Source: Gigantopelta aegis (taxonomy: Eukaryota). From it: a stretch of 64,000 nt of DNA. Shown piece by piece: positions 9,465-62,487 of the stretch. The notes under the pieces were generated by a model. That model had not been told where the DNA came from. It did not search any database and saw nothing but the letters and a program-made list of their open reading frames with translations. The number at the start of each line of letters is the position of its first letter. Position 1 is the first letter of the stretch. The DNA is taken from positions 3,754 to 67,753 of the forward strand of contig NW_024532772.1 in the NCBI RefSeq assembly GCF_016097555.1, given 5' to 3'. The translations under genes were made by a program, and so were the position numbers.

Positions 9465-10480
9465 TTAACCAATTCAACACTGGGTTGATCCCTAGCATAA
9501 GATGAATAACTGGATGGATAGAGAAGAGAATGGACAGGTAGAAGGATCAACTTGTTCTTAAGTGAAGTACATGTATATAGAGTATTGTTACTTACTTATA
9601 ATATGGTCGTCCTGGTAATCCTTCTGGTAAAATAAATGATCTCTCTATGTTCATTAGTTTATTGTTAAGTATTCTAACTATATTCTCACTACAATACAAA
9701 GACAAAGATATAGTTAATAACTACTGGTATATACTAACTTGTCTGTGTCAGCAAATTTAATATGAGTATCATAAAGATTGGTAACAGCTGTTGAAAAGTC
9801 AGTTAAAGTCACTTCAAAAAAACATGCAATTTGTAGCTTACATGAGTAAAATTATACTATGGAATCCAAAAGTCATGTACAAAATAAGTTGGTACATGTT
9901 ATATATATGCAATCAGCTAATGATTCAGTGAGTAGTTTGTACAAACTTTGCATACCACAGCAATTAATTCAGTCATCCATTACAAGTAGTTGGTTGAGAA
10001 TAACTAATTCAATTCTTATGAAAGTCAGTTAATTATGAGTGAAGGAAATCTGTAGAAAAATGACATTATCATTAATATGTAAACTTTTATTATCTCAATT
10101 TGGTTCAAAACCAAATTAATATATCAAGTGAGCTTATTATAAGGTATTATAGTATAGGGTTTCTGTAAAGTTTAATAATTCATTGTATTACAATAGTTGG
10201 GTGAAAATAACTCATTAATTCTTATAGGAGAGCAAGTTAAATATGAGTGAAGAAAATCTGTAGAAAAATGACATTAGCAATTAATACACAAACTTTTATT
10301 ATCTCAATTTATGTCAAAACGGTGTCTTTATAATCAGGTAGTAGTTGTTTCTGTAAAGTTAATGATTCCTTGACATTATTCTAAGTTTCAGACACATAAT
10401 CTTCTATTGGATGAGACTGACCATTAACAGTTATGCTAGCACACCATGAAGCAACTCCAGTCAGTAGAATTAATAAATTT
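9465..10480 (-). pseudogene. GCPII/NAALADase-like gene relic (3'-terminal exon and exon-1 fragments; middle deleted)
   Basis: 9598-9750 is near-identical to 28850-28990 and 48690-48830. Reverse complement encodes [31 protein letters not shown], which matches GCPII [29 protein letters not shown]. 10390-10480 matches the exon-1 region 51470-51560. Confidence 0.6.
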
Positions 10481-10971
10481 TGAGCATGTTATAATTACCT
10501 TATATGGACAATTATATTATAGAACTTGAAAGGCTTAAATTACATTCCTGTCATTGCTAGCCCCCTTCTTGTTGTTCAAAGTAAACAAGTAAATTACAAC
10601 TTAATATCTCACACTACAATATTCCTTTTGTCAGCTTTAAACAGTTTTATAAACAAAGCCACAAAGATCTGATTGACTAGTTGGACTCTATACTAGCCAT
10701 TTATGAACTGAACTCATTGGTAATAGTATATATTGTGAAACTATCTCATTGGTAATAGTAATTATTTACTGGATATATCTCTGTCAAATAAAAAAGTGTA
10801 GACTAGTGGGTCTATTTCCTATCAAAGACAGTTTTGATACAGTCCTAGGTAGTGACAAAAGTGACTCAGCATTATTCTCTTTAGAAAATTTTATTATTAT
10901 CAAACTACTACTTTTTTGACAGAATTGCAAAAAAATACATCTTATATCTAGAGACTATTAGTACTTACACA

Positions 10972-12710: not shown

Positions 12711-15129
12711 ATGTCTGATAATATCAGTCCCACCTAATGTTAATCTTTTATGTCGTGAACTGGAAGAAATATCTGAATGGGAAAAACTTGCAGTCTATCT
12801 CAATTTACCTGCTCATATATTCATGATGCCAAAGAATGTTACCCCACATGGAGGTATTTGGGAGCGCTGTGAAAAAGCATTGTGTACCAAAAATGGCTAG
12901 ACACAAAACCAATACTGTACATTCATGGCATACTATAGCTGATGCAGTATAGTAGAAAAAAGTAAATCTGCAGTTGCTGGGAACATTAGACAAAGTATAC
13001 TACTATTCTATGGATCAAGTGCATGAGAGATTACCAAATGCACAGATGTGATTCTAGTCACAATAATGAAGATGATGATTCAAGATTCATTAGTACTCCA
13101 GTCTGTATACTTCCAACAAACATCATAGAAGCGATTGCTAATCTACTAGACAGACATTTGCCCAATTACTCGCAGAAACTCAGAAAGAATTTGAAAAGAG
13201 ACCAGATTTACTTACACAGCTTGATCGATACGTGAAAACATTAACAGGCATAACCACATTACCAGATGGAAACTGAAGCAACATACAAAAAACTGTTTGA
13301 TGCATGGATAATAATATAACATCAACTGGCATTACCTTAATTGTTTACTTTCTTCAAAAATAGTTGAAGTGTTTCTTTCTGACACAGAATTGCCTGGAAA
13401 AGTGCAGATATATCAAAAAGATGCAACTGCAATTCATGAAGTCAAAGAAACTAAAGATTTTGTAAAGGAGATATTGTCAAAAAAAAAAAAAATGGATCAA
13501 TTCTGCTGCAAGTTAGTATTGATAGCAAAGGAGCAGACACAATCTATCATCTCAAAACGCAATTCATGATACAGTTGCATCATCTTATTGAGGAATGTAA
13601 TGAAGAGTCTTATTATGACATCTTTGTAGAGTAGGGTAATGTATACCGTAACTGGAGTGTTTCAAAAAATGCAGAAGCCATGCTAAGACCAACTATGCTA
13701 TAATATGACATCATAACAACACTCTGCCTAGAGATAATGTCAATAGCAATGATATAACTCCAGTCCCATTCAACCTTTTAGTAATGGTGTTTTCTTTTCA
13801 ATTATTCGCGGATGTTTGCACAAATAAAAAATGAAACACAGACTATTTATATTGCATCCAGAATGGTCACTTTTTCTGTTGTTTCTTTTTGCACTAACAA
13901 TGGGGCAGAGCCCGTAACCTAGCTAATAATGAGGGGGGGATATGACACCCTTACTGATTGCTAGCCAAATGGTCATGATTAACGTTTTGAGTTATTACTA
14001 AATATGTTCCTGTAAATACTCAAAACAATGAATGACAGCCGTTTACATTCAAAGCAGATGGTCAACTTTTCGGTTGTTTCTTCTATCTTGCTTAAATGAG
14101 TCAGAGCCTACATAACTACAAATATGGACACCTCTTATTATAGCTAGTGAAAAATGGTATGGTGAGTCGTTGGAGTTATTACTAGAGAAGAACGTTCCTA
14201 ATACTCAAACACAAGAATGAAGAGCTTGGCAAGCCAACTGGCCTGTATTTTCTATCGTTGCTTAATGGAGCAAAGCCACCATAACTACAAATAAATGGCT
14301 GACACCTCGTATGATTCTAAGTCAAAATGGTCATGATAAACGTTGTTTGAGTTATTACTAAGAATAGAATGTTCCTGTAATATTCAAACACACAGTGGAA
14401 TGACAACCCAATTGCCACGCCAGAATGGGTCACTTCCTCTGTTTTTTTCTATCTTGCTTACACAATGAGCAGAGCCTAACTAACTAACCAATAATGGGCT
14501 GGACACCTCTTATTTATAGCCGTGAAAATGGTTATATTGATGTCATTGAATTGTTACTAGAGGAAACTATGTCCAAATAATACACAAGAGATAATATAGA
14601 ACAACAGCCTTTATAGGAATGCTAGCCAATAGTGTCATACTAGCTTCTGTCAGCTTCTATCCTTACTTAACAAGGGGCTACGCCCCATTTAGGCAGGACC
14701 AATGGGTGGACACTCTTTTAATAGCTTCTGCTGGAGGACATAATGAGTTGTGAGTGAGTTATTGAAGACTCAAGTTAATATTAACCATCAAATTCCAACT
14801 GGCAATACAGCATTGTACTTCTCAAGTTATTTTGGACATGAAAATATCGTTAGACAGCTACTGGGAAAGTGGTGCTGATCCACTTATAAGAGACATGTTT
14901 GGTCGTTCACCTTTCATCAACCAAAGATATAGCTCATCAACAAAAGTCATCATAACATTGCATTACTACTTCGAGAATCTATGGCTGTTTTATGTGACAT
15001 AGATTACCAAGAGTCATTAGCAGGTTCTTTTGAGTCAGGTTATACAGCTGGTGGACTATCAACTTATTACTCATCAGTAGGATACTCTGATATTGCACAA
15101 ATTTCTGATCTAGAAGAAGATGATGATTG
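12711..15129 (+). pseudogene. Unit 3: DD-like exon (type B), middle region, ~9 decayed ANK repeats, C-terminal tail
   Basis: MSDNISP-type exon at 12711. Middle-region ORFs at 13023 and 13369 (TELPGKVQIYQKD). ANK relics at 13800-14700. C-terminal block at 14700-15129 (QIPTGNTALYFSSY...DYQESLAGSFESGY...SDLEEDDD) with many frameshifts. Confidence 0.7.
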
Positions 15130-16330: not shown

Positions 16331-16777
16331 TTATAATAATTTTGGACAATTATATTATAGAACTTGAAAGGCTTATCACATTCCTGTGGTTGGTAGCTCC
16401 CCCTTCTTGTTGTTGAAGGTAAGCAAGTAAACTACAACTGAATATCTCATACTACAATATCCTTTATGTCAGCTTTAAACAGTTTATGAACCAAAGCCAC
16501 AAGATCTGATTGACTATTTGGACTCTATACATACTAGCCTTTATAAACTGAACTCATTGGTAATAGTAATTATATACTGGATATATGTCTGTCAAAATAA
16601 GGTTGTAGACTAGTGGTCTATTTCCTATCAAGGACAGTTTTGACACAATCTAGGCGATGACAAAAGTGACTCAGCATTATCTTCTTCACAAAAATTTTAT
16701 TATTATCAAACTACTACTTTTTTGACAGAATTGCAAGAAACTAGATCTTATATCTAGAAACTATTATTACTTACATA

Positions 16778-17090
16778 ATGTCTGATAATATCAGTCCACC
16801 TACTGTTAAACTTTTATGTCGTGAACTGAAAGAAATATCTCAATGGGAAAAACTAGCAGTATATCTCAATTTACCTGATCATGGTTATCCAGGATGCCAA
16901 AGAATGTTACCCACATGGAGGTATTTGGGAACGCAAAAAAAGCATTGTCTAAAAAAAATGGCTAGATCAATCCAACACTACACATTCATGGGTGGTTATA
17001 GCTGATGCTGTAGAAGAAGTCAATGGTAGTCTTGCTGAGCATATCATTTCAAAAAAAGTATGCTAATATTCTAGATCAAGTGCCATCACA
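16778..17090 (+). other. Death-domain-like coding segment, type B
   Basis: Helix pattern LLCRELKEISQWEKLAVYLNLPDH...WLDQ.NT.HSW..IADAVE fits a six-helix DD signature (W..LA..L, I.D). Recognised by eye only. Confidence 0.5.
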
Positions 17091-17149
17091 AGTTGATGAA
17101 GTTGAACAAAGAGACATAACACAAGAAGTTGATGAAGTTGAACAAAGTT

Positions 17150-17440
17150 TCAAGATTCACAGTATCTGATAATATCAGTCCACCTTCTCTTGATGTACTG
17201 TGTGATGAACTGAGACAAGTAGTTGAATGGGATCAAGTAGCTGTGTCTCTCAAGTTGTCTTTTGTTGATATTGAAGATGTCAGAGGACGATTTTCAACAA
17301 TAAACCAGTGCAAAATGCATTCTTTACAAAATGGCTGGATCAAACCAATACTGTACATCATGGCATACTGTAGCTGATGCAGTAGAAAAAGTGAACCCTA
17401 GAGTTGCTGAGAATATCAGAATGAAGTATGCTACTATTAT
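17150..17440 (+). other. Death-domain-like coding segment, type A
   Basis: LCDELRQVVEWDQVAVSLKLSFVDIEDV...QNAFFTKWLDQTNTVHSWHTVADAVEKVNPRVAENIRMKYATIIDQV, reconstructed across one frameshift. Confidence 0.5.
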
Positions 17441-20400
17441 AGACCAAGTAACTTTAACTATACAACACGAAGGATGTCAAACAATATGATCAACGTCAAA
17501 CTGCCATGAAAAACCAATTGAAAATGAAATGCAACTTGAAAAAAACATAGTTGAGGAAATAATTAACTTAGAAGACAAATTTGCTATGCTTGTTTCAAAA
17601 ACACAGACAACTTTAGAAAGAAGGCCAGAAATTCTTTTACCGTTACTTCGATACTTGAAAAAACGTGGAGTACATGACAAAAACGTCACCAGATGAAGCC
17701 CAATGTATCACATATAGCAGAGTATTTGATATACTACACACACATTGGAATTATCTCAAATGCCGACTTCTAGAAAGAATAATTCATAACTTTCTTTCTA
17801 ACACTGAATTACCACTTGAAGTGCAGAAATATCAAGATGAAATGACAGCATTCAAAGAATCGACAAAAATGAAAGATCTTGCTGACGTTATAAAAGCAAA
17901 GCAAAGACACCAGATAAGGAGCAAGTAGTGTTGAAAGTGAAGGAAATGTGGCTAGATGTAACATTAGAGCATTTTGAGTTCTGGTAAAGCTGCTTTTCCA
18001 AGAATATGATGAGTCACTTCAAAATATTGTTGTCAGAAAAGGCAGTGTAAATGTTACCTGGAGTGTTTCTAAAAGATAGCTCTCCTCATAACAAGATCTA
18101 AATTTGACATTGAAGTATTAAAAGCAATTGGAGTCATCTCACTAACAGTAGTAACTATTGTAGTCTTTAACAATGAAGACTCACAAGATGACATGACTAT
18201 TGACTCAGGTCTGTTGGGAGCTGTTCAATCTGGTGGTCCTCTTTCTGCTATATCTCTTCTTCTTGAAGTAGGTGGTAATCCTAACCTACTAACACAGTCA
18301 GGTGAAAACAGTAATATCCTACTTTTATCTAAAATGAAAAAATGATAATGGTACCACTGTGTTACATGTTGGTAGTAAATATGGTCACTCTTCAGTTGTT
18401 TCTACCTACTTAATAATGGGATAGACCCAAACTTAGTTAAGAATAATGGTTGCACACCTCTTATGATAGCCAGTCAGGATGGCCATGATGATGTCATTCA
18501 ACTGTTACTAAAGTCAAATGTAGCAATAAATACCCAGAGCAAAAATGGAATAACAGCAAATTATATTGCAAGTCAGAATGGTTGCTTTTCTGTTTGTTTC
18601 TACCTTACTTAACAATGGGGCAGACCCTAACCTATGCAACAGTGATGGCTGGACACCTCTAATGGCAGCCAGTAAGAAGGTCATGATGATATTGTTGAAT
18701 TATTACTAAAGAGAAATGCCTTGTAAACACCAAAACAAAGAATGGAGCAACTGCAATTTATATAGCTAGCCAGAATGGTCACACTTCAGTTGTCTCTACT
18801 TTATTTAGGAATGGGGCAGATCCCCAATTTAGGTAGGAATGATGGGTTGGACACCTCTTGTATCAGCCAGTTTGAATGGTCATGGCGATGTCATTCCATT
18901 ATTACTGGATATGAATATTGCCATAAATATTCAAGGTAAAGGATGGGACATCAGCCATTGATCTTGCAAGCTTGAATGGTCATTTTATTTATTGTCTCTA
19001 ACTTACTTAACAATGGTGCAAACCCTAACGTTACTAGAAATGATGGTTGGACACCCTCTTATGGCAGGAAGTCAAAATGGCCATAGTGATATCGTTGAGT
19101 TATTACTAGAGAAGAATGTCCAATAAATACTCAAAACGTTGATGGAATAACAGCCATTTTCTACTGCCAGCCACTTGGCCATTCTTCTGTTGTTTTCTAC
19201 TACTTACTTAACATGGTGCAGACCCTAACCTAGCTGACAATGATGGCTGGACCACTCTCATGGTAGCCAGTCAGAATGGTCATTGTGATGTTGTTGAGTT
19301 ATTACTTGAAAATATGCTCAGATAAACACTAAAAACAAGCGAGGAGTGACAGCCATTTACATTGCTAGCAATAATGGTCACTCTTCTGTTGTCTCTACTA
19401 CCTATTTAGCAATGGGGCAGACCTAAGCTAGCTAGAAATAATGGTTGGACACCTCTTATGGCAGCTAGTAAGAATGGTCATGTTTGTGTTGTCTAGATGT
19501 TGATAGAGAAAAGATTCCCATAAATGCTCAAAACAAGCATGGAGCAACTGCTATTTATATTGCTAGTCAAAATGGTCACTCTCCATTGTTTCTCTTTTAC
19601 TTAGCTATTATGCAGACCTAATCTAGTCAATAATGATGGTTTTGGACACCTCTTATAGTAGCCAGTCAAAATGGTCATAGTGATGTTGTTGAATTATTAC
19701 TAGAGAAGAATGTTTCAATAAATGCTCAGAACAAAATTGGAAAAACAGCCATTCATATTGCCAGTCAAAGTGGCTACTCTTCCATTGTCTCAACATTACT
19801 CAACAAAGGAGCAGACCCTAATCTACCAGACAACAATGGTTGGACACCTCTTATGGCAGCCTGTTTGAATGGTTGTAGTGATGTCTTTCGATTATTACTG
19901 GAGGTAAATGTTCCAATAAATACTCAAGGTAAAGATGGAACAACAGCTATTGACCTTGCAAGCCTAAATGGTCACTCTTCTATGGTTGTCTGCCTTGCTT
20001 AGTAATGGTGCAGATCTTAACCTATCTAGAAATGATGGCTGGACACCTCTTATTGTAGCAGTCAGAATGGTCATGGTGATGTGTTTGAGTTATTACTAGA
20101 GAAGAATGTTTTGATAAATGCACAGAGCACAGATGGAATAACTGCCATTTCTATTGCTAGCCAGAATGGTCACTCTTCTGTCATTTTTACTTTACTTAAA
20201 AATGGCGCAGACCTAAAACTTAGCTGACAAATCTTGTTGGACACCTTTGATGGTAGCTAGTCAGAATGGTCATGATGATGTCGTGAAGCTATTACTAAAA
20301 CAAATTAATGTTTGCCATCAATACCCAAAACACAATGGAGCAACAGCTATTTATTTTGCTTGCAAGAACGGGCCATTTCTTCAGTTGTTTCCACATTACT

Positions 20401-21329
20401 TAACAATGGAGCAGACTCAAACATAGTCAAAAATAATGGCTTAACACCACTTATGGCAGCCAGCAAGAATGGTCATGTTGATGTCATTCAAGCGCTACTA
20501 CAGAGAAATGTACCAATAAATAGTCAAACTAATGATGGGAAAACAGCCATTTATCTTGCTAGTCAAAATGGTCATTCTTCTGTTGTTTCTACTTTACTTA
20601 CCGATGGGCAGACCCTAATGTAGCTAAGAATGATGGTTGGACACCTCTTATGATAGCCAGCACCAAAGGACATGGCAATGTTGTGAAAGAGATATTGAAG
20701 ACTCAAGCTAATATCAATCATCAAACTCCTACAGGTACTACAGCATTGCATCTTTCTAGTCAATATGGATATGAGGATATTGTTAAACAGCTATAGAAGG
20801 TGGTGCTAATCCACTTATAAGAGATATGTTGGGCTGGACACCTCTGATATAGCTCATCAAGAAGGTTGCCATAACATTGTATCACTACTTTTTGCTGGTT
20901 TCCGGCAAGACAATTATCAAGAGTCATTAGCAGGTTCTGTTGAGTCAGGTTATGTAACTGGTAGATTATCAACTAACCGTCATCATCAGCAGACTCTGAG
21001 TCATTGCAAATTAATGTAGGGAATTGAGAAACATTAACAAATGTCCAGAACACCTTCTCTACCTATCATTGAATTGACACAATAAGAAATTCTTAATTTT
21101 GTATAACCTATAATTTTTCTAAATATTTGCATTGTTGCTATGCTCTTGACATGTTGATGATTTTAATAATATTATATATTTATTGTTAGTGATATTGAAC
21201 ACTAATAGTTAGTTTGGTACAATACTTTCCCTACTTACAAAGCAATGACACTGATTTTCTGGCAAAATGCCTGGTTCATTACTGATGAAAGCAGATCATT
21301 ATATATAACATAATATAATATAATACATT

Positions 21330-22394: not shown

Positions 22395-25300
22395 ATGTCT
22401 GATAATCTCAGTCCACCTACTCTTGATCTACTGTGTGATGCTAAGACAAGTAGTAGAATGGGATCAAGTAGCTGTAAGTCTCAAAGTATCTTATGTGGAT
22501 ATTAAAAGTATTGAGACACAATATTCTTGAATTAGCGCAGCGCAGAATACATTCTTTACAAAAATGGTTAGATCAAGCCAACACTGTACATTCATGGTGT
22601 ACTATAGCTGATGCAGTAGAAAAAGCAAATCCCTGCAGTTGCTGAGAACATTAGAACAAAGTACCTACTATTATAGATCTAGTACCATCCACTTCGCGAC
22701 ATGAAAAAATCTAAGCCTAAATGTAAAAAAAACAAACATAGTCCAACTAGTTACTTTATGAATAAGACAAACAAGTTATTACAACAAATCAAATGCCACA
22801 GCATAAGAAATGTAGTGTAAATGATGACCAACATCAAGCTATTATTGAAGAGCAGCAAATCATTCAGCTTCAAGTATCTTCAAATTCACAGCATAAAGAA
22901 TCTAGTGATACTCATCAATGAAATTATACAACCAGTACTAGTGATATCATTGAACAGCAAACAATTAATGGAGAGTGGAGTAAAGCTTGAAAGAAATATA
23001 GTCCAAGAAATCATGACTTTCTTGAGAGATTTGCAGCATTATTTTTCAGAAACTCAATCATTTTAGAAGAAAAACCAAAAATCCTTTTGCCTTTTTATCG
23101 ATACTTAAAGATTCTAATAGGTGAAGCATTACCAAGATGAATCTGGCATCACGTATGACAAACTATTTAATATGCTAGATAACTATTGGCATTACCTCAA
23201 TATCAACTTCTTCAAAGAATAATTAAACGATTTCTTTCCGACACTGAATTACCTCATGAAGTACAAGAATATCAAGATGATATAGTAGCATTTAAAAAAT
23301 CAACGAAAAAGAGAGATCTTGTAGATAATGTGAGATCAAAAAAGAGCACATCAGGTATGTACAAGTAGCATTGACAGTGGAGGAAGTATGGCTAGAGTCA
23401 CACTAGAGCATTTGAGTTTCTGGTAAAACTACTTTTTCAAGAATATGATAAATCACTTCAAGTTGTAGTTGTTCAAGAAGGTAGCTTGGTATATTGCTGG
23501 AGTCTTCTGAAGACCATAGCTTTCGCCTTCTTACAAATCCAAATTTGACCACAAAGTGCTAAAAGCAATTGGAGTCATCTCACTAACAGTAGGTACTGAT
23601 GTAGTCTTTAACAATGGAAGACTCACAAGACGATATGACATTTGACTCAGCTCTGTTGAGAGCTGTACAATCTGCATGGTCCCCTTTCTGCTATATCTCT
23701 ACTTCTTGAAGTAGGTGGTAATCCTAACCTACTAACACAGTCAGGAGAAACAGTGATATCTACTTTGTCTGCAATAAAAGATGATAATGGGACTACTGTG
23801 TTAATTATTGCTAGTAAATATGGTCACTCTTCTGTTGTCTCTACCTTACTTAGTAATAGGGGCAGATCCCAACATAGTTAACAATGATGGTTCCACACCT
23901 CTTATTGTAGCCAGTCAAAATGGTCAGCTGATATAATTAAGTTACTACTAGAGAAGAATGTTCCAGGTAAATATCCAAAACAAAGAAGGAGTAACAGCCG
24001 TTTGTATTGCTGGTCACCATGGTCACTCTTCTGTCGTCTCTAACTTACTAGCAATGGCAGATCCCAACATAGCTATGATGATGGCTGGACACCTCTTATG
24101 GCAGCCAGTGGAAATGGTCATGGTGATGTTGTTGAGTTATTATTAGAGAAGACTTCCAGTAAATACTAAAACAATTAATGAGTAAGAACAGACCATTTAT
24201 ATTGCTAGCCAGAATGGTTGTTCTTCTGTCATCGTCTTTCTTACTTAGCAATAGTGCAAATCCTAATATGCCTGACAATGATGGCTATACCCTCTTATGG
24301 TAGCCAGTGTAAATGGTCATGGTGATATTGTTGACATACTACTTAATAAAAGTGTTCCAGTAAATATCCAAAAACAATTATGGAACACAAGCTATTTATG
24401 TTGCTAGCCAGAATGGTTATACTTCTATTGTGTCTTCCTTACTCAACAATGGGGGCAGACCCTTATTTATCTGACAATGATGGTTGTACACCTCTTATGA
24501 TACTATTGAAAAAGGTCATAGTGATGTTCATTCAACCCCAATTTATTATTAAGCATAAGGTACCAATAAATACCAATCCAAAAGAGGGAACGAAACTGCA
24601 ATTTTTATTTTTGATTAGCAAGACTGGCCATTCTTCTGTTGTTTCTACCTTACTTAACAATGTGCAGATCCAAACATAGCTATGAATGATGGCTGGAGAC
24701 ACCCTCTTATGGCAGCCAGTGGGAGGTGTCATGGTGATGTTGTGTTAAGCTATTGCTAGAGAAGAATGCTCCAGTAAATAGCCCCAAACAAAAATGGAGG
24801 CTACAGCAATTTATATTGCTTGCTTGACTGGGCATCCATGTTGTTACTACTTTAATTAACAATGGGGCAGATCCTAACATACCCAAGATCAATGGTTGGA
24901 CACCTCTTATGATAGCCAGTCTAAATGGTTATGGTGATGTTGTTGACTTATTATTAGAGAAAAAAGTTCTAGTAAACACTCAAACCAAAAATGGTAGTAA
25001 CAGCCATTTGTATTGCTAGTCACATGGTCACTCTTCTGTTTGTCTCTATTTTACTGGCGCAGTAGGGCAGATCCTAACCTAGCTACAATGATGGACATGG
25101 ACACCACTAATGTCGCCAGTGTAAAATGGTCATGGTGATGTCATTGAGATACTACTTAATAAGAATGTTCCATTAATATCCAAGACAATATGGAAGAACA
25201 GCCATTTTTATTTGCTAGCAGAGTAGTCACTCTTCTGTCGTCTCTCTAACTTACTTAGCAATGGGCAGATCCAACATAGCTATGAATGATGGCTGACACC

Positions 25301-27768: not shown

Positions 27769-28547
27769 GAGAGCCAATATCTAATAATGCATACACTAAA
27801 CTAATTGATTTAAACTAATACATTACTTAGTCATCTAATCACTTCACAGAAGGAAACTCTGATGTTGGCCAAGTGTCAAATATAAAGGAATACAATGATG
27901 ATACCCTCTCTTCTTACACTGAACCAAGCACACTAAGACAAGAGATATAATGTAGAAAAACAATAAAGTACTTATTTCCAGTTAATGCAATGTTAATAAG
28001 AATAGAATTTCAATTGAACTTCAATAACTGATGTTTCTAATTGAAAATTTCAAAAGCATTCTGTAAAATTAATGTGTATTGGTCAATTATTAGTTATAAA
28101 GCACATTACATGACTGTAATAGAAACAATGATCATTGTAATACAAAGAATTATCTAGAAGGATCTTGTAAATACTGAAAACCACATGATAGTTTAAATAA
28201 TTTAAATATTTATTTATATTTCATATATTTTAGGGACAAAATCACCTTACACATTACTGAAATATATCTTCAAAATGAACATAATTCATAAAACTTACTG
28301 ATTACTTTAATTATTAATGGTTTTAGTATGTTATTGTATCTTGTTAATTAATTATTTTGTATTAATTAAAATCCATATTTTATGAAACTACATTGCTTGA
28401 AATCCTAATACTAACAGTATATTATAACAGACTTTGTTTACAAATAATTATTTGTTTTAATTATTATAATATGATCTGTTGTGTTTAACTTTTTTGTATA
28501 ATTATAATTAACAATAAAGTTATAATACTTTCAAATGTAATTAATTA

Positions 28548-30227
28548 ATTAATCCATTCAACACTGGGTTGATTCATATTTGTGTAGCATAGCGTACATG
28601 GATAGCTACTATATCCAGCTGATGATGTACTTCATTCCAATCTTCTAATGTTGTAGCATTAAGATACTATCTACTACTCCTGGAAAAGAAGCACCTTCAT
28701 ATAAATTGACTGAACTAGGACAAATATAAACATGTCTGTATGGAGAAGAAAGAGAGGAAAGAGATGTTGAGGTATAAATGAAATGGATGGATAGAGAAAA
28801 GAATGGGCAGATAGAATGATCAACATTGTTCTTAGTGAGTACATATATAGAGAGTATTAATTACTTACTTATAATATGGTCGTCCTGGTAATCTTCTGGT
28901 AAAATAAATGATCTCTCTATATTCATTAGTTTATTGTTTAAGTATTCTAACTATATTCTCACTACAATACAGATACAAAGATATAGTTTAATAACTACTG
29001 GAATTATACTAACTTGTCTGTGTCAGCATATTTTATGAGTGTAGTATGAAGATTGGTAGCAGCTGTTTGAAAAAAGTTAGTTAAACAAGAGGAAAGGAAC
29101 TCTATAGAACAAATGATATTATTAATACAATAATTTATATGGATCTCTTATTTCATTAACTAATGTACTATATAATATAGGTAACATGTAAGAGTTAATA
29201 TGACATATTATAATATATATGTATATATTAGGAGGACATCTTACCAGTTGATATATTATGATGTTGTAATTGACTACCATATGTTGTCTGTAACTCATTA
29301 TATAGTTTCCATTAATCTCTCTGTATAATCATTTGGATTGTAAGGAAGAATGGGTGTGGTTTGATAGTGCCATGGCAAACAGTTAACCACACCTTTCCTA
29401 ATGCTTTATGATGTGTGAAGTCAGGATCACCAAAATGACTCATCCAATAAAAATTATCATGAACAGAATGATAGACAAAATAATGGTAGTTATTCTAAAT
29501 GGTTTGATGAATACAATATGGTTACTAAGTTCAATTAAATTGACAAATACATTATTAGAATGGATGGACATGATACCTGGTAATCTATGTCACAGCTGGT
29601 CACTCCAAGACTCTGAATAAAGAAAGTAAAGTCACTCGCAGAGCTCAATTATTTATCCTATAAATAACAAATCACATGATAATCATGTGACAATTTATGT
29701 AGTATACCTTGGTTTTGAAGATTTTGGAGTGGTTCTTTCCACTGTTCATAGACTGTCTGGAAATCATTACAAGGGACAAGCTACTACTAGAGGACAAATG
29801 TCATCTAGATAAATACAGAAGATTGATAATATATTTCTGCAAACTAACTTGTTTTGTGGAATTGTAAATAGATTCATATAACAGTGGACTACTAGAAGCT
29901 GAAAAAGATTCCATTCCTAGATTGAAAAATAAAACTATATATCATTAAATTTCTTGAGTTGTGATATAATTATAACAATATATTATTATTATAAATGTAA
30001 TCAAAGTCTTTACCTTCTACAAGCTACATCTACATTAAGATAAGCCATAGCATTTACTCCTAATAACTTTTTTACATCCTATATATATAATAGAAATAAT
30101 ATATTATATAACTATTTGTAATATACCTCAACATACTCTGTAGAACCAATCAAACCATATTCCTCAGCATCCCAACTACATAATACTACTGTTCTACACC
30201 TGGTCTCCACCTTTAAAATATAGAATT

Positions 30228-32214: not shown

Positions 32215-35200
32215 ATGTCTGATAATATCAGTCCATCTACTGTTAATCTTTTATGTCATGAACTGGAAGAAATATATGATGGGAAAAACTAGCAGTATAT
32301 CTCAATTTACCTAATCCTGTTATTCAGGATGCTAAAGTTCGTTATCCACATGGAGGCATTTGGGAGTTCAAAATGCATTGTCTACAAAAATGGCTAAAGC
32401 AAACCAACACTGTACATTCATGGAGTACTATAGTTAGTGCAGTAGAAAAGTGGATAGTAGTGTTGCTGAGCATATCAAAACAAAGTATGCTACTATTCTA
32501 GATCAAGTGCTAACTACTTCACAAAAAGAAGAACAATTAATTGTAACTGAAGGTCCAACTAGCACACATGATCCCATGATTAACAACCTAGAACAAATAC
32601 CATCAACTTCATCAAATATGACCAACATTCAACTAGTAACTCTAGAATTGAAGAAGAAAACACCATTAAAAGAGGTAGTTGAAAAAGAGGTAGTTGAACA
32701 GATTCTTAATTTAGAAGACAAATTTGCTATGTTAGTTTCAAAAACGCAGACATCTTTTGAGCAAAACCAGAAATTCTTTTACCATTACTTCGGTACTTGA
32801 AAGAACGTGAAATAGATGTCAAAACTTCACCAGATGAAGCCCAATGTATTACATATAGCAGAGTATTTGATATACTACACACACATTGGAATTATCTCAA
32901 ATGCCGACTTCTAGAAAGAATAATTCATAACTTTCTTTATGACACTGAATTACCACTTGAAGTACAGAAATATCAGATGAAATAGAAGTTTTTTAAAAAG
33001 TTAACGAAAATGAAAGATCTTATCAACAATATAAAACCATTATACCAAGTAAAGTGAAGGTTGTATTGAAAGTAAATGAAATGTGGCTAGATGTCACATT
33101 AGAGCATTTTGAGTCTCTTGTAAAGCTCCTTTTTGAAGAATATGCAGATTCTCTTTATGTCACTTCTGTCAAAAAAGGTTGTAGTGTGTTTGTGTGGAGT
33201 GTTCCTGAAGTCATAGCTTTCTTCATGCTGACAGTGAGATTGTCCAGACTTGAAAATGAAATGTTAAAAGCAATTGGAGTCATCTCACTAACATAGGTAC
33301 TATTGTAGCCCTTTAACAATGAAGACTCGCAGATGATATGACATTTGACTCAGGTCTTGTTGAGGAGCTGTTCAATCTGATGGTCCTCTTTCTGCTATAT
33401 CTCTTACTTCTTGAAGTAGATGGTAATCCTAACCTACTAACACAGTCAGGAGAAACAATAATATCTACTGTATCTAAAATGAAAAGTATTGATGGTACTA
33501 CAGCATTGTACATAGCTATTGATATGGTTACTCTTTTGTTGTCTCCTCATTACTTAGTAATAGAGCAAATCCTAACCTTATAGTTCAGAAAGATGGTGCA
33601 ACACCTTTATGGCAGCCAGTCAAAATGGTCATGCAGATATTGTTGAACTATTATTAGAGAAGGATTTTCCAATAAATACCCAAGACAGAATGGAGTAACA
33701 GCTATTTGTTTGGCTAGTCAGAATGGTCACACTTCTGTCGTTTCTATTTACTTCGCAATGGAGCAATATCCTAACTTAACTAGTAATTGAAGGTGCAACA
33801 CACTCTTATGGTAGCCAGTGGAAATTGGTCATGGTGAGTATCGTTGAATTATTGCTAGAGAGAATGTTCCAATAAATACTCGAGCCAAAATGGAGTAACA
33901 CAGCCATTTATATGGCTAGCCATTGTGGCCACTCTTCTGTTGTTTCTATCTTACTAAGAATGGAGCAGACCTAATGTAGCTAGAAATGACGGGTTTGACA
34001 CCTCTTATGTAGCCCAGTTTTTCCTGGTAGTGGTGATGTTGTTGAATTATTGCTAGAGAAGAATGTTCCAATAAATACCAAGAGCCCAAAATGGAGCAAC
34101 AGCCATTTATGTTGGAGCCAAATGGTCCCCCATTCCTTCTGTTGTTTCTATCTTACTTTAACATGGAGCAGACCCTAAACTAGCTGCTAAAAATGGTGCA
34201 ACACCTCTGATGGTAACCAGTGAAAATGGTCATGATGATATTGTTAAATTATTACTAGAGAAGAATGTTCAATAATACTCGAGCCCAAAATGGAGTAACA
34301 GCCATTTATATGGCTAGCCATGTGGCCACTCCTTCTGTTGTTTCTATCTTACTTAAGAATGGAGCAGACCCCTAATGTAGCGAAAATGACGGTTTGACAC
34401 CTCTTATGGTAGCCATTTCACGGTAGTGGTGATGTTGTTGAATTATTGCTATAGAGAAGAATGTTCCAATAAATCCCAAGATAAATATGGAAGAAACAGC
34501 CACTCTCTGCAAGTCAGAATGGTCATTCTTCTATCATTTCTATTTTACTTGCCAATAGTGCAGACCCTAACCTAGCTGATAATGATGGGTTGTACACCTT
34601 TCTTATGATAGCCCGTGATAATGGTCATGGGTGATATCGTTGAATTATTATTAGAGAAGAGTGTTCCATGTCAATACTCAAATCAAAAAGGAAAATACAG
34701 CCATTTATTTTGCTAGCCAGAATGGTCATTTTCTTCATTTCTATTTTTACTTAGCCATGGTGGCAGGACTCCTAACCTAGCTGATAACAATGGTGCAACA
34801 CCTCTTATGGTTGGCAAGTTATAATGGTATGGTGATATCGTTGAATTATTATTAGATAAAGAATGTTTTAATAAATCCCCAAGCCAAAAAATGGAGCAAC
34901 AGCAATTTACTTTTGCTAGCCAGAAAGGTCATTCTTCTGTAGTTTCTATCTTACTTACCAATGGTGCAGACCCTAACCTAGCTGATAATGATGTTGCAAC
35001 ACCGCTTATGATAGCCCCATTTGAATAATGGTCATGGTGATATCATTGAATTATTATTAGAAAGGATGTTCCAATAAATACCCAAGCCAAAAATGGAGCA
35101 ACAGCAATTTACTTTGCTAGCCAGAAAGGTCATTCTTCTGTAGTTTCTATCTTACTTACCATGGTGCAGACCCTAACCTAGCTGATAATGATGGTGCAAC

Positions 35201-38316: not shown

Positions 38317-41300
38317 ATGTCTGATAATCTCCGTCCACCTACTCTTGATCTACTGTGTGATGAGCTAAGGCAAGTAGTTGAATGGGATCAAGTAGCTGTA
38401 AGTCTCAAAGTATCTTATGTGGATATAAAAGTATTGAGACACAATATTCTGAATAGCCACAGCGCAAAATGCATTCTTTACAAAAATGGCTAGATCAAAC
38501 CAACACTGTACATTCATGGCATACTATAGCTGATGCAGTAGAAAAAGCAAAAATCCTGCAGTTGCTGAGAACATTAGAACAAAGTATGCTACTATTATAG
38601 ATCTAGTACCATCCACCTCACAACATGAAAAATCTAGCGATGTAAAAAATGAGCATAATCCAACTAGTTACTTTATGAATAAAGAGCAACAAGGTATTAC
38701 ACTAAATCAAAGCCACAGTGTAAGAATGTAGCGTAAATGATGACCAACATCAAGTTATTATTGAAGAGCAGCAAATCATTCAGTATCTTCAAATTCACAG
38801 CATGAAGAATCTAGTGATACGCTCAATGACAATTATACAACCAGTACTAGTGATATCATTGAACAGCAACAATTAATGGAGAGTGGAGTAAAGCTTGAAA
38901 GAAATATAGTGCAAGAAATCATTGACTTTCTTGAGAGATTTGCAGCATTAGTTTCAGAAACTCAAGCATTTTTTAGAAGAAAAAACCAAAAATTCTTTTA
39001 CCTTTTTATCGATACTTAAAGATTCTAATAGGTGAAGCATTACCAGATGAATCTGGCATCACATATGACAAACTATTTAATATGCTAGATAACCATTGGC
39101 ATTATCTCAAATATCAACTTCTTCAAAGAATAATTAAACGATTTCTTCCGACACTGAATTGCCTTATGAAGTACAAAAATATCAAGATGATATAGTAGCA
39201 TTTAAAAAGTCAACGAAAATGAGAGATCTTGTAGATAATGTGAGATCAAAAAAGAGCATATCAGGTAATGTACAAGTAGCATTGACAGTGGAGGAAGTAT
39301 GGCTAGAGGTCACATTAGAGCATTTTGAGTTTCTAGTAAAACTACTTTTTCAAGAATATGATAAGTCACTTCAAATTGTAGTTGTTCAAGGAGGTAGCTT
39401 GTATATTGCTTGGAGTCTTTCCAAAGCTTTCCTTCTTACAAAATCCAAATTTGACTACAAAGTGCTAAGGGCAATTGGAGTCATCTCACTAATAGTAGGT
39501 ACTATTGTAGTCTTTAACAATGAAGACTCACAAGATGATATGACTATTGACTCAGTCTGTTGGGAGCTATTCAATCTGGTGGTCCTCTTTCTGCTATATC
39601 TCTACTTCTTGAAGTAGGTGGTAATCCTACCTACTAACACAGTCAGGAGAAACAGTGATATCTACTTTATCTAAAATAAAAAATGATAATGGTACCACTG
39701 TGTTACATGTTGCTAGTAAATATGGTCACTCTTCAGTTGTTTCTACCTTACTTAGCAATGGGATAGATCCAAACGTAGTTATGAATAATGGTTGTACGCC
39801 TCTTATGCTAGCTAGTCAGGATGGCCATGATGATGTCATTCAACTGTTACTGAAGTCAAACGTAGCAATAAATACCCAAGGCAAAAATGGAATAACAGCA
39901 AATTATATTGCAAGTCAGAATGGTCACTTTTCTGTTGTTTCTACCTTGCTTAGCAAAGGGGCAGATCCCAACTTAGTTAACAATGATGGCTGGACACCTC
40001 TTATGGCAGCTAGTAAAAATGGTCATAATGATGTCATTGAGATACTACTTTAAAAAAAGGGTATTATGACAAATACCCAAAACAAATATGGAAGAACAGC
40101 CATTTATATCGCTACCCAGAGAGGTCACTCTTCTGTTGTCACTCTCTTACTTAACAATGGGGCAGATCCCAACATAGTGACAATGAAGGCTGGACACCTC
40201 TTATGGTAGCCAGTTTAAATGGTCAACTGATGTCTTTGAGATACTACTAGAGAAAAATATTCCAGTAAATACCCAAAACAATAAGGGAATAACAGCCATT
40301 TGTATCGCTAGTCACCATGGTCACTCTTCAGTTGTTTCTACCTTACTTAACAATGGGGCAGATCCTAATGTAGCTACAAATGATGGTTGGACACCTCTTA
40401 TGACAGCCAGTATAAATGGTCATATGATGTCATTGAGATACTACTAATAATAATGTTTAGTAAATACCCAAAACAATTATGGAAGAACAGCCATTTTATT
40501 GCTAGCCAGAGTGGTCACTCTTCTGTTGTCGCTTTCTTACTCAACAATGGGGCAGACCCTAATTTACCTGATAATGAAGGTTGGGCACCTCTTACGATAG
40601 CCAGTCAAAATGGACATGGTGATGTAATTGAGATATTACTAAGGAAGAATGTTCCAGTAACACCCAAACAAAAAGGGAATAACAGCTATTTGTATGCTAG
40701 CCACCATGGTCACTCTTCTGTTGTCTCTATGTTACTTAGCAATGGGGCAGATGCCAACCTAGCTATGACCAATGGATGGACACCTCTTATGGCAGCCAGT
40801 CAAAATGGTCATGCTGATGTTGTTGAGATACTACTTAACAAGAATGCTCTAGTCAACACCCAAAACAATTATGGAAAAACAGCCATTTATATTGCTAGCC
40901 AGAATGGTCACTCTTCTGTTATTACACCTTACTTAGAAATGGAGCAGACCTTAATTTACCTGGCAATGATGGCTGTACACCTCTTATGGTAGCCAGTCAA
41001 AGTGGTCATGCTGATGTCATTGAATACTACTGGAGAAAAATGTTTCATTAAATACCCAAACAAAGAAGGAGCAACGGCTATTTGTATGGCTAGCTACCAT
41101 GGTCACCTTCCTGTTGTCGCTATGTTAATTAGCAATGGAGCAGATGCCAAAATAGCCGATAATGATGGCTGGACACCTCTTCTGGTAGCTAGTCTAAATG
41201 GTCATGATGATGTCATTAAGATACTACTAGAAAATAATGTTCTAGTAAATACCCAAAACGAAAAAAGGATAACTGCTATTTATATTGCTAGTCAGAGTGG

Positions 41301-44300
41301 TCACTCTTCTGTTGTTTCTACCTTGCTTAGCAATGGGGTAGATCCCAGCCTAGCTACGAGTGATGGCTGGACACCTCTTATGGCAGCCAGTCAAAATGGT
41401 CATACTGATGTTATTGAGATATTACTTAATAAGAATGTTCTAGTAAACACTCAAAACAATTACGGAAGAACAGCCATTTATATTGCTAGCCAGAATGGTC
41501 ACTCTTCTGTTGTTTCTTCCTTACTCAAGAATGGGGCAGATCCTAATTTATCTGACAATGATGGCTGTACACCTCTTATGGTAGCCAGTCAAAATGCTGA
41601 TTATGATGTCATTAAGATACTACTAGAGAAGTATGTTTCACGTAAATATCCAGAACAAGGAAGGAGAAACAGCTATTTGTATTGCTAGCCACCATGGTCA
41701 CTCTTCTGTTGTTTCTACCTTACTTAGCAATGGGGCAGACCCCAACATAGCTGACAATGATGGCTGGACACCTCTTATGGTAACCAGTCTAAACAGTCAT
41801 GGTGATGTCATTAAAAAACTATTAATGAAAAATGCTACAGTAAATGCCCAAACTAAAAAGGGAATAACAGCCATTTATATTGCTAGCCAGAATGGTCACT
41901 TTTCTGTTGTTACTACCTTACTTAGAAATGGGCAGATCCCAGCCTAGCTACAAGTGATGGCTGGACACCACTTATGGCAGCCAGTCAAAATGGTCATGCT
42001 GATGTCGTTGAGAAATTACTTAAAAACAACGTTTTAGCAAATACTAAAAACAATTTTGGGAAAACAGCTATTTATATTTCTAGCCAGAGTGGTCACTCTT
42101 CTGTTGTCTTTTCCTTACTCAACAATAGTGCAGACCCTACTCTACCTGACAATGATGGCTATACACCGCTAATGGTAGCCAGTCAAATGCTCATGATGAA
42201 GTCATTAAGATACTACTAGAGAAGTATGTCCAGTAAATACCCAAAATAAGAAGGACAAACAGCCATTTATATTGCTAGCCACCATGGTCTCTCTTTTGTT
42301 GTCTCTATCTTACTTGGCTTTGGAGCAGATCCCAACATAGCTGACAATAATGGATGGACACCTCTTATGATAGCCAGTGTAAACTCTTATGGTGATGTCA
42401 TTGAGATACTTCTAGAGAATAATGTTCCAGTAAATACCCAAAACAAAAAGGGAGTAAACACCTATTGTATTGCTAGCCAGAACGGTCACTCTTCTGTTGT
42501 TTCTACCTTACTAAGAAATGGGGCAGATCCCAACTAGCTGCAAATGATGGCTGGACACCTCTTATGGCAGCCAGTCAAAATAGTCATGCTGATGTTATTG
42601 AGATATTACTTAATAAGAATGTTCTAGTAAACACCAAAAACAATTATGGAACAACAGCCATTTATATTGCTAGCCAGAATGGTTGCTCTTCTGTCGTATC
42701 CTCCTTACTTAACAATGGGGCAGACCCTAATTTACTGACAATGATGGCTGTACACCTCTTATGATAGCTATTGAAAAAGGTCATAGTGATATCATTAAAT
42801 TATTATTAAAGCACAGGGCACCGATAAATACCCAATCCAAAGATGGAGAAACTGCAATTTATTTTTTTAGCAAGACTGGTCATTCTTCTGTTGTTTCTAC
42901 CTTACTTAGCAATGGTGCAGATCCTAACTTAGCTAACAATAATGGCTGGACACCTCTTATGGCAGCCAGTAGAAATGGTCATAGTGATGTCGTTTTAAGA
43001 TACTATTAGAGAATAATGTTCTAGTAAATGCACAAACCGAAAAGGAGTAACGGCCATTTGTATTGCTAGTCACCATGGTCACTCTTCTATCATTTCTATC
43101 TTACTTAACAATGGGGCAGATCCCAGCTTAGCTGACAATGATGGATTGACATCTCTTATGGCAGCCAGTGGAAATAGTCATAGTGATGTTGTTAAGATAC
43201 TATTAGAGAATAATGTTCTAGTAAATGCACAAACCGAAAAGGAGTAACGGCCATTTGTATTGGTAGTCACCATGGTCACTCTTCTATCATTTCTATCTTA
43301 CTTAACAATGGGGCAGATCCCAGCTTAGCTGACAACGATGGCTTGACATCTCTTATGGCAGCCAGTGGAATGGTCATAGTGATGTTGTTGAGTTATTATA
43401 GAGCAGAATATTTCAGTAAATACTCAAACAAATAATGGAAGAACAGCCATTTATATTGCTAGCCAAAATGGTTACTCTTCTGTCATCTCGTTCTTACTTA
43501 GCAATGGTGCAAACCCTAATATACCTGACAATGATGGTTGTACACCCTTATGGTAGCCAGTAAAAATGGTTACATTGATGTCATTAAGATACTACTACAG
43601 AATAATGTTCTAATAAATACCCAAAATGAAGAAGGAGTAACAGCTATTTGTATTGCTCGCCATCGTGGTCACTCTTCAGTTGTTTCTATCTTACTTAACA
43701 ATGGGGCAGATCCCAACACAGCTACAAATGATGGCTGGACACCTCTTATGGCAGCCGTGTAAATGGTCATACAGATGTCATTGAAATACTACTTAATAGA
43801 AATGCTCCTAGTAAACATCCAAAACAATTATGGAAGAACAGCCATTTATGTTGCTAGCCAGAGTGGTCACTCTTCTGTTGTCTCTTCCTTACTTAACAAT
43901 GGGGCTGACCCTAATTTACCTGACAACGAAGGTTGGATACCTCTTATGATAGCCAGTCACAATGGTCATGGTGATGTCATTGACATACTACTTAATAAAA
44001 ATGTTCTAATAAATACCAAAAACAAATATGGAAGAACAGCCAATTTATATCGCTACCCAGAGTGGTCACTCTTTTGTTGTCTCTACCTTACTTAGCAATG
44101 GCGCAGATCCCAACATAGCTGACATTGAGGTTGGACACCTCTTATGGCAGCCATTGTAAATGGTCATGTGATGTGATGGAGATACTATTAAAGAGAAATG
44201 TTCCAGTAAATACCCAAACCAAAAGGGGAATACAGCCATACGTATTGCTAGTCACCATGGTCATTCTTCTGTTGTTTTCTATCTTACTTAACAATGGAGC

Positions 44301-47587: not shown

Positions 47588-48349
47588 GAGCCAATATCTA
47601 ATAATGTTACACTAAACTAATTTGATTTAAAATAATACATTAATAACATCTGATCACTTCACAGAGCAGACTCTGATGTTGGTCAATTGTCAAATATAAA
47701 GGAATACCATGATGATACTCTCTTCTTACACTGAACCAAGCACACTAAGACAAGAGATATAATGTAAGAAAAACAATAAAGTACTTATTTCCAGTTAATG
47801 CAATGTTAATAATGATAAGATAGAATTTCAATTGAACTTCAATAACTGATGTCTCTAATTGAAAATTTCAAAAAGCATTCTGTAAACATAATGTGTATTA
47901 ATCAATTCATTAGTTATAAAGCACATTACATTGACTGTAATAGAAACAATGATCATTGTAATACAAAGAAGTATCTAGAAGGATCTTGTAATAATAGTTT
48001 AATAATTTAAATATTTAATTATATTTCATATATTTAGGGACAAACTCACCTGACACAGTTACTGAAATATATTTTCAAAATGAACATATTCATAAACATA
48101 CTGATACTTTAATTATTAATGTTTTGTTATGTTATTGTATCTTGTTAATTAATTATTTGTATTAATTAAAATCCATATTTATGAAACTACATTGCTTGAA
48201 ATCTGAATACTAAATAACATATTATAGCGGACTTGTTTACAAATAATTATTGTTTAATTATTATAATATGATATGGTGTGTTTTACATTTTTGTATAATT
48301 ATAATAACAAAAGTTTATAATACTTCAGATGTAATTAATTAATTAATTA

Positions 48350-51010: not shown

Positions 51011-51063
<53 letters not shown>

Positions 51064-51630
51064 TTTAGCGCAAGATAAATAATTGCTTACTTCAGCTGAT
51101 CCAATCCTGAATAACTATTAAAAGGAGGAGGGGACATCAGTGTCATTTTCTCCTGGTGTCAGGGGAGGGTTCCTGCCTGTTTCTGCAGTGTAGAGGACAT
51201 CTTTGTCATCATTAAGAACCTTTAGTACATTGTAGTTGCTGCGATTTACATAACTCAATAATACACTATAATTTGTCATCTCTACAAGATCAAAATTATT
51301 TTGTGAGAAAGACTGATAAATGAGGTTAGCAATATCTTTATTTTGTTCCTTGCCAGCAATATGAGGTCTGGCAGTAAGTTGTCTATCAGAGAAGTATTAA
51401 TAATTATGATCAGTTTAATCTTGTAACACTTTACCTTAAAATTCTTTTTATTTATTTGAATCCAAACTTTCAGACACATAGTCTCCTATTGCTGAGACTG
51501 ACCATTAACAGTACAATAGCACCCCATGAGTTAACTGCAGGTCAGTAGACTCATTAATACTCCATCCTAGTAGGAAACCAGCCCCAAAACTGGTACAAAG
51601 TAACAATACTACACTGATAATGGCACAAAT
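48350..51630 (-). pseudogene. GCPII/NAALADase-like copy B: inverted 5'-truncated duplicate of copy C. Lacks the start codon and cytoplasmic tail, and carries frameshifts
   Basis: - strand ORFs: 49016 ([19 protein letters not shown]), 50055 ([26 protein letters not shown], then a stop caused by a missing T), 50456 ([12 protein letters not shown]...[11 protein letters not shown]). Exon GPLVYVNYAQFKDF...[18 protein letters not shown] at 50940-51010 is intact. Homology to copy C stops at 51630 after the TM-coding segment. A 1-bp deletion lies inside the TM exon. Confidence 0.75.
51013..51060. repeat. (GA)n microsatellite in a GCPII-B intron
   Basis: Read directly. Confidence 0.9.

Positions 51631-62454: not shown

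Positions 62455-62487
<33 letters not shown>

Follow-up and report, generated by a model that had tools for sequence, protein, structure and literature searches.

A heterotypic pair of death-domain-like modules at the start of one unit in a tandem array of ankyrin-repeat genes

How does one member of a tandem gene array come to begin with two different death-domain-like modules when its neighbours begin with one? The question is raised by an AT-rich window of 64 kb (G+C about 33%), by which we mean the whole stretch of DNA analysed here, the plus strand of which is a tandem array of related units. Each unit encodes, from the N- to the C-terminus, a module of about 100 residues, a linker and a middle domain of about 300 residues, an ankyrin-repeat (ANK) array with the consensus ..GWTPLMIASQNGH.. 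and an acidic tail of the pattern ..SLAGS.ESGY.TG... Unit 4 (16.8-21.0 kb, plus strand) is the member with the double head, and the explanation that we favour for this tandem is that, in a gene cluster undergoing recombination, one paralogue recently had a head duplicated or inserted.

The array and its death-domain heads

The modules were placed by tblastn with both module types, followed by frameshift-aware protein-to-DNA alignment guided by intact homologues. By tblastn, the window holds eight death-domain-like modules, with positions being given here for seven, all on the plus strand: type A in unit 2 (10972), type B in unit 3 (12711), type B followed by type A in unit 4 (16778-17082 and 17162-17450), type A in unit 5 (22395), type B in unit 6 (32215), and type A in unit 7 (38317). 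No further module of this kind was detected in the window by tblastn at E<=1. The arrangement bears out the earlier note on this DNA, which had read unit 4 as B then A, units 2, 5 and 7 as carrying only A, and units 3 and 6 as carrying only B. Type A can be divided into two subtypes, A1 (units 2 and 4; ..EDVRGRFSTINQCKM..) and A2 (units 5 and 7; ..KSIETQYSELAQRKM..), and every head opens with a nearly invariant start block of about 20 nt, TCTGATAATATCAGTCCACC. An initial manual repair of these A modules (..RFCNNKPVQNAFFTKWLDQ..), which produced an apparent TGA stop common to units 5 and 7, was ruled out; the intact homologues give the true readings ..RFSTINQCKMHSLQKWLDQ.. and ..YSELAQRKMHSLQKW.., in which the apparent common stop is gone.

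The units are unequally preserved, with units 2 and 3 being truncated and unit 1 represented by its tail only, and with unit 7 extending over about 38.3-47.5 kb on the plus strand. Unit 7 also contains a near-identical 198-nt duplicate (43010-43215 and 43207-43415), equal in length to two ANK repeats, the copies of which differ by four substitutions and by one single-base indel that shifts the frame. A non-coding element of about 550 bp is present in three copies, one of them inverted (28538-29085, 48339-48894 and 54784-55357), is 88-89% identical to an inter-unit segment of the related contig described below (L003 8647-9174), and could represent either a dispersed repeat or an element marking unit boundaries. 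Exons resembling glutamate carboxypeptidase II (GCPII) or NAALADase (match to GCPII in the PDB, E=4e-26) are found downstream of the array. They belong to an inverted duplication whose two arms, each about 3.4 kb long (48339-51728 on the minus strand and 51895-55333 on the plus strand), are separated by about 170 bp and share 89.6% identity; between the arms there are 152-207 mismatches as well as 61-83 gap events. The idea that this structure is a fold-back read artefact that could calibrate the error rate of the assembly was dropped in view of the 152-207 substitutions found besides the gaps, and the inverted duplication may be a real, diverged one. Two short exons of an RRM-type RNA-binding protein on the minus strand (62007-62222 and 62370-62543; ..KDQAKRSR | GFGFITFKDAETVQYILD..) belong to a gene that is not related to the array, and an Rfam scan of the window gave no match. 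These neighbouring genes mark the locus as part of an animal genome.

Both modules of unit 4 had been called death-domain-like from the letters, and profile comparison, structure prediction and fold search agree with that description. Against the Pfam Death family (PF00531, cut-off 22.6 bits), the A2 module of unit 7 scores 35.6 bits, above the cut-off, and the repaired A1 and B modules of unit 4 score 18.7 bits (profile positions 4-82 of 86) and 17.1 bits (positions 11-80 of 86), both below it. Within the family, the scores are 26.7 bits for P0029, 33.2 for P0033 and 21.0 for P0017, and P0001 gives no match at E<=0.01. All three repaired window modules match nearly the whole profile, and both modules of unit 4, like the intact proxies closest to them, fall under the gathering cut-off of the Pfam family; they are death domains (DDs) by fold and borderline by Pfam score. 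In an alignment headed by the repaired B-A tandem the first DD was left without aligned homologues, and AlphaFold2 was consequently run on intact proxies and not on the broken window copies: P0017 for type B (85% identical) and P0001 for type A1 (88% identical). The P0017 model has helices at residues 7-17, 23-29, 34-43, 49-62, 70-80 and 82-108, with a pLDDT of 79-93 over most of the DD, mostly 86-93, and the P0001 model has helices at 9-17, 23-29, 34-43, 47-60, 68-76 and 80-105, with a pLDDT of 76-87. The structural objection foreseen in the earlier note, namely that neither segment might adopt a six-helix death fold, thus falls away, since both proxies place six helices in their first ~105 residues. 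For both models, the best Foldseek matches in the PDB are DDs at a probability of 1.00, with the DD of FADD coming first (target TM 0.76-0.81, rmsd 2.2-2.5 A) and being followed by those of RAIDD, RIPK1, TRADD, TNFR1, ankyrin-G, ankyrin-B and ankyrin-1. Both head types of unit 4 are accordingly modelled with the death fold.

Relatives were collected with two word-indexed searches and one exhaustive HMMER search. The close family consists of 28 proteins, with 12 representatives at E<=1e-30, and each of them carries only one DD, which is N-terminal and starts MSDN..PPT (12 of the 12 representatives). All 28, like the 10 relatives checked, are unnamed predictions of ENA or Logan assemblies. What sets this DD subfamily apart is its constant position at the extreme N-terminus together with an MSDN..PPT motif; none of its members in the databases searched has a name. 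The same subfamily also occurs in P0030 and P0031, whose bodies are transmembrane and Ser/Thr-rich and lack ANK repeats. A related contig, ERZ21862620 ctg189295l (loci L001, L003 and L004), runs collinear with the window, its DNA being 75-90% identical, and carries five units, genes a to e, with one DD each. Because its open reading frames (ORFs) are long (1,133 aa and, in L003, >3,683 aa), we regard the array genes as functional at least in the related contig, and for the same reason the array genes, each with the order DD, middle domain, ANK array and acidic tail, appear from their sequence to be intronless.

The double head of unit 4 and its origin

Unit 4 begins, on the plus strand, with a 5' flank and leader (16341-16777) of the type found upstream of A1-type units, the flank aligning with the upstream region of unit 2 (10350-10971) and also, in the related contig, with L003 9343-9768 upstream of gene d, and the leader, ..CTATTATTACTTACATA, standing directly before an ATG at 16778. 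This ATG opens the type-B module (MSDNISPPTVKLLCRELKEISQWEKLAVYLNLPDH..ILDQV; 16778-17082), which shares 84 of 99 residues with the intact protein P0017, contains no stop codon, and needs four frame corrections (16883, 16941, 16958 and 17046). It is followed by a short acidic linker (PSQVDEVEQRDITQEVDEVEQ; 17083-17147), the PSQ start of which matches the post-DD linker of the B-type protein P0018, while a search for the origin of the linker VDEVEQRDITQEVDEVEQ detected no source for the remainder. Next come a vestigial leader (TTTCAAGATTCACA) and a degenerate start codon (17148-17164), both recognized by leader alignment, and the type-A1 module (VSDNISPPSLDVLCDELRQVVEWDQVAVSLKL..IIDQV; 17162-17450), which agrees with P0001 at 84 of 95 residues, has no stop, and needs two frame corrections (17330 and 17359). 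The first codon of this A module is GTA (17162-17164), where the other heads in the window have ATG.

The body of unit 4 is that of the family. Its linker and middle domain (17451-18330) have no Pfam match and are 85% identical in protein to gene d, with seven further frameshifts and no stop, in a comparison guided by a sequence built from P0001 and P0005. The ANK array and acidic C-terminal tail (18331-21016) contain about 25 repeats, as estimated from the span, with the stop-to-stop segments showing the ANK consensus TPLM(I/A)ASQNGH in a shifting frame, and the tail reads ..YQESLAGSVESGYVTG.. at 20810-21016. The middle domain, of about 300 aa, is conserved between the DD and the ANK array (17451-18330 in unit 4; 38650-39620 in unit 7) with the pattern ..FAMLVSKTQ..LLPLLRYLK..WHYLKC.LLERII.NFLSDTELP.EVQKYQD..WLDVTLEHFEFLVKLLFQEY.., and a Pfam scan of the unit 7 segment equivalent to the middle domain of unit 4 found no significant family; its N-terminal part is modelled as long helices in the AlphaFold2 prediction for P0001.

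The two heads are adjacent on the same strand with 79 nt between them, and they form a direct repeat that starts at 16774 and 17158, with a spacing of 384 nt that drops to 368 nt further on. Their DNA is 74-88% identical in blocks, and their proteins are 49% identical after frame repair. The short tandem duplication that had been noticed between them is real as a repeat, since AAGTTGATGAAGTTGAACAAAG occurs exactly twice (17090-17111 and 17126-17147), but the 22-nt copies are not head-to-tail, with 14 nt lying between them and the period being 36 nt, or 12 codons, from start to start. TRF called no tandem array over 16500-17700, and no other copy of AAGTTGATGAAGTTGAACAAAG was found in the window or in the fetched loci, none being expected by chance.

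Had the two heads been alternative or mutually exclusive first coding exons, or served alternative promoters of one gene, as the earlier note also entertained, each would be expected to have its own start codon and a splice donor leading to a common acceptor. The B head does have its own ATG and upstream flank, and the two heads differ in type, as such an arrangement would allow. The A head, however, starts with GTA, its leader amounts to only ~14-19 nt with no promoter-sized flank, and inspection of 17082-17170 revealed no strong splice-donor consensus after B. Moreover, the DD is continuous with linker, middle domain and ANK array in one uninterrupted, intron-free ORF, both in the related contig and in the 28 homologues (for example, P0004 with 491 aa, P0029 with 814 aa, and the >3,683-aa ORF of L003), and the DD is thus not a separate exon. 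This arrangement is therefore hardly credible for unit 4.

The comparison with gene d points to insertion. From 17165 to 18098, unit 4 is 90.6% identical in DNA to gene d (L003 9769-10710), and unit 4 is the orthologue of that single-DD gene. Both gene d and the paralogous unit 2 have an A1 DD only, behind the same 5' flank as unit 4, and what unit 4 has in excess of either is 384 bp (16778-17161), made up of the B-type DD, the acidic linker and the short leader remnant. The leaders of the two heads are exchanged. By leader alignment, the B head of unit 4 stands behind an A1-type flank and leader (..ACTTACATAATG), the flank being common to it and to the A1 head of unit 2, and the A1 head of unit 4 is preceded by TTCAAGATTCACA-GTA, in which the final 13 bases of the leader agree at 12 of 13 positions with unit 6 and its B-type leader (TTCATGATTCACA-ATG); by hand count on the alignment, about 17 of the 19 bases upstream of the start match B-type, and no match to the A1-type leader was found in the bases before this A1 head. 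Both ends of the insertion fall in the start block, and it is precisely at this block that the direct repeat opens (16774 and 17158).

On this evidence, the B head was probably inserted at the start of a single-DD unit 4, through ectopic recombination or template switching between heads. The starting state would have been a single-DD (A1) gene, the orthologue of gene d, which would have received at its very start the 384-bp segment consisting of a B head, an acidic linker and ~14-19 nt of B-type 5' leader, with the exchange between paralogous heads presumably having taken place at the start block. A 36-nt in-frame duplication of 12 codons would later have arisen in the new linker, and the old start codon, now internal, would have come to read GTA. 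We infer that the tandem is the derived state because gene d and unit 2 are single-DD, because a vestigial leader still precedes the A module of unit 4, and because that module starts with GTA. Some observations count against the insertion: B and A are out of frame as assembled, with the B frame ending in TGA TAA, the leader match is short (13-19 nt), and a precise deletion between two start blocks would restore a single DD, so that the direction of change rests on parsimony (unit 2 and gene d) and on the vestigial leader. The window does not contain the donor of the B head, the nearest B heads being only 80-85% identical in DNA, and the dN/dS of the B head, 0.78, is measured over only 100 codons, a length at which it is uninformative. 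The 11-mer TTCAAGATTCA of the unit 4 junction (17150-17160) also occurs in the linker of unit 3 (13079-13089), at a similar distance after the DD, and on this sequence match the unit 3 linker could be an alternative, though weaker, origin for the leader remnant.

An ancestral tandem that has been lost repeatedly, the other history suggested in the earlier note, has against it the single A1 DD of gene d and unit 2, the vestige of leader and start codon before the A module, and the single DD of all 12 close representatives, none of which has a DD-DD tandem. In the wider set of relatives, such tandems do occur: 16 of the 167 relatives fetched have two or more DDs ~100-120 residues apart, among them P0032, in which a DD pair directly precedes the same kind of middle domain, P0038, with two DDs and >20 ANK repeats, and P0041, in which the second DD retains a duplicated N-terminal head (MS..IIMSD). 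No heterotypic B-A pair was found outside unit 4 among the relatives fetched; DD-DD tandems as such are not new in the wider clade. Exchange of heads between bodies is seen elsewhere: the B head of P0019 is followed by a linker of the A2 type, and P0028 couples a B-like DD tail with an A1-type linker.

The tandem might also have been made by the assembly, through a mis-join or collapse of a B-type and an A-type unit from noisy long reads. Mis-assembly is common for tandem paralogues, and this assembly is poor, as seen in a poly-C tract, frequent single-base indels and the 61-83 gap events in 3.4 kb of the inverted duplication. Joining at a common sequence, however, would give one hybrid DD and not two complete ones, the junction has features of its own (a unique linker with the 36-nt duplication, the leader remnant and the mutated start), and the B head of unit 4 copies no other B head in the window (80-84% identity). 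Such a mis-join is very unlikely, and we retain the insertion as the preferred account.

Frame breaks: assembly error or decay

As assembled, no DD module in the window is an intact ORF. The B and A modules of unit 4 lie in different frames, B in frame 1 and A in frame 2, and with six internal frameshifts they do not form one continuous ORF, although the quality of the assembly limits what this comparison can say. The frame of B closes at TGA TAA (17167-17172), and that of A is open from 17120 onwards. By direct reading of the sequence, removal of one T from the TTT at 17148-17150 would fuse B and A in frame (..EVEQSSRFTVSDNISPP.. / ..QEVDEVEQSSRFTVSDNISPP..). The B-A fusion protein is a putative product of a sequence ridden with indels.

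The frame breaks could mean that the whole array, unit 4 included, consists of decayed pseudogenes and that the B-A tandem is rearrangement debris that encodes nothing. To weigh this, lesions were counted over the unique N-terminal 1.1-1.4 kb of the units, with dN/dS being taken against the orthologue. Unit 4 (17162-18331) has nine frameshifts and no stop, or 130 nt per lesion, at a dN/dS of 0.34; unit 7 (38317-39720) has nine frameshifts and one stop, or 140 nt per lesion, at 0.39; unit 5 (22395-23818) has 18 frameshifts and one stop, or 75 nt per lesion, at 0.37; and unit 6 (32215-33332) has eight frameshifts and one stop, or 124 nt per lesion, at 0.59. The coding interruptions are single- or two-base indels, one per ~75-140 nt. 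Each DD module contains two to six frameshifts, many of which are one-base changes in runs of A or T (such as A7 and A8 at 16941 and 16958), and three modules contain stops.

Decay is favoured by this burden of lesions in every DD module, by the truncation of units 2 and 3, and by the lost start codon of the unit 4 A module and its being out of frame with B. It is also favoured by the comparison of unit 7 with gene e, in which indels stand at about one per 15 substitutions, near the neutral ratio, and by lesions in the cleaner related contig. There, the DD of gene c (L003 4081-4374) has a Trp-to-stop change, and gene d, the orthologue of unit 4, has ACG for ATG (L003 9766-9768) and one frameshift in its DD (9954), and because of these lesions some array members are evidently decaying in that contig too.

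Set against decay of the whole array is the pattern of the changes. The dN/dS of 0.34-0.39 is not above that of two intact paralogues of the related contig (0.50), and the mismatches are biased towards codon position 3 (130, against 89 at position 1 and 64 at position 2); the bodies of the array genes are under purifying selection. Frameshifts outnumber in-frame stops by 44 to 3 in 5.1 kb, against about 2 to 1 expected under neutral decay (our own rough figure), and of the four units measured, units 4, 6 and 7 are alike in lesion density (one per 124-140 nt), with lesions being about twice as dense in unit 5 (one per 75 nt). The GCPII-like exons, which are unrelated to the array, are also frame-broken, with the breaks differing between the two arms, and young internal duplicates carry single-base indels at up to one per 1-4 substitutions, a figure drawn from two short pairs and one ANK pair and hence suggestive only. 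Technical noise is further indicated by a tract of ~1 kb at 1693-2699, almost pure C with scattered other bases, which is probably a sequencing or assembly artefact; the collinear related contig has ..GTGTACTTCACCATTTGTGG.. at this site and no tract.

Given the dN/dS of 0.34-0.39 and the ratio of 44 to 3, most lesions look like assembly errors, and we hold with good confidence that indel errors of the assembly account for most of the frameshifts, decay of the whole array into pseudogenes being unlikely. In an assembly so rich in indels, apparent pseudogenes need to be treated with caution. If the frame breaks are errors, as we think likely, the insertion of the B head would have given rise to a product of the form DD(B)-linker-DD(A1)-middle-ANK, which is predicted to expose two distinct surfaces for homotypic interaction on a single ankyrin scaffold. 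Should the breaks be real, the unit 4 gene would have been decapitated by the insertion.

Relation to known death-fold proteins and meaning of the tandem

The combination of an ANK array with a DD is shared with the canonical ankyrins (ANK repeats-ZU5-UPA-DD) and with DAPK1 (kinase-ANK-ROC/COR-DD), but in the window genes the order is reversed, with the DD at the N-terminus. The window genes also differ from these proteins in having no ZU5, UPA, kinase or ROC domain, their place being taken by the middle domain with no Pfam match, and the ANK arrays of the family are far longer, as illustrated by the >3,683-aa ORF of the related contig. Death-fold modules in tandem are familiar from the paired death effector domains (DEDs) of caspase-8 and FLIP and from the paired CARDs of RIG-I and MDA5. 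Unit 4 resembles these, and the DD-DD proteins P0032, P0038, P0041 and P0043, in the pairing of N-terminal death-fold domains on a larger protein, and it differs from them in that its two DDs are of different subtypes and only 49% identical; its likeness to the DED and CARD tandems is one of domain arrangement, and the fusion is seen in a single gene of one assembly.

Expansions of DD-bearing innate-immune genes within particular lineages have been described in sponges, cnidarians and other invertebrates. A study of sponge NLRs reportedly provides one example. Another comes from a survey of cnidarian PRRs (PMC8260672). The window family has in common with such expansions that tandem, fast-diversifying genes join a death-fold head to a repeat array, with heads being shuffled between bodies here, and it differs from them in having no NACHT or NB-ARC domain. 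A putative immune role for the family rests on this analogy.

For a paralogue in a tandem gene family, gaining a duplicated domain at the 5' end is a routine event, and DD-DD arrangements are already present among the relatives. The particular value of unit 4 lies in its offering a clean, datable birth of a double death-fold head, the traces of which are all still visible: a start block present in duplicate, a fossil leader and a dead start codon. A bolder interpretation, which we put forward as doubtful, even less likely than the pseudogene array, is that the DD serves as an exchangeable "address label" (A1, A2 or B) recombined at the 20-nt start block, and that unit 4 encodes a functional B-A bridging adaptor. 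If this were true, the double head would couple two otherwise separate DD signalling networks in an array of invertebrate immune-like receptors. Our search of the literature found no description of this DD-middle-ANK family, and the locus is a sign of a family, so far undescribed and restricted to a lineage, of very large DD-middle-ANK proteins whose heads are interchangeable and which by analogy may be candidate innate-immune-type scaffolds of a marine invertebrate or holobiont.
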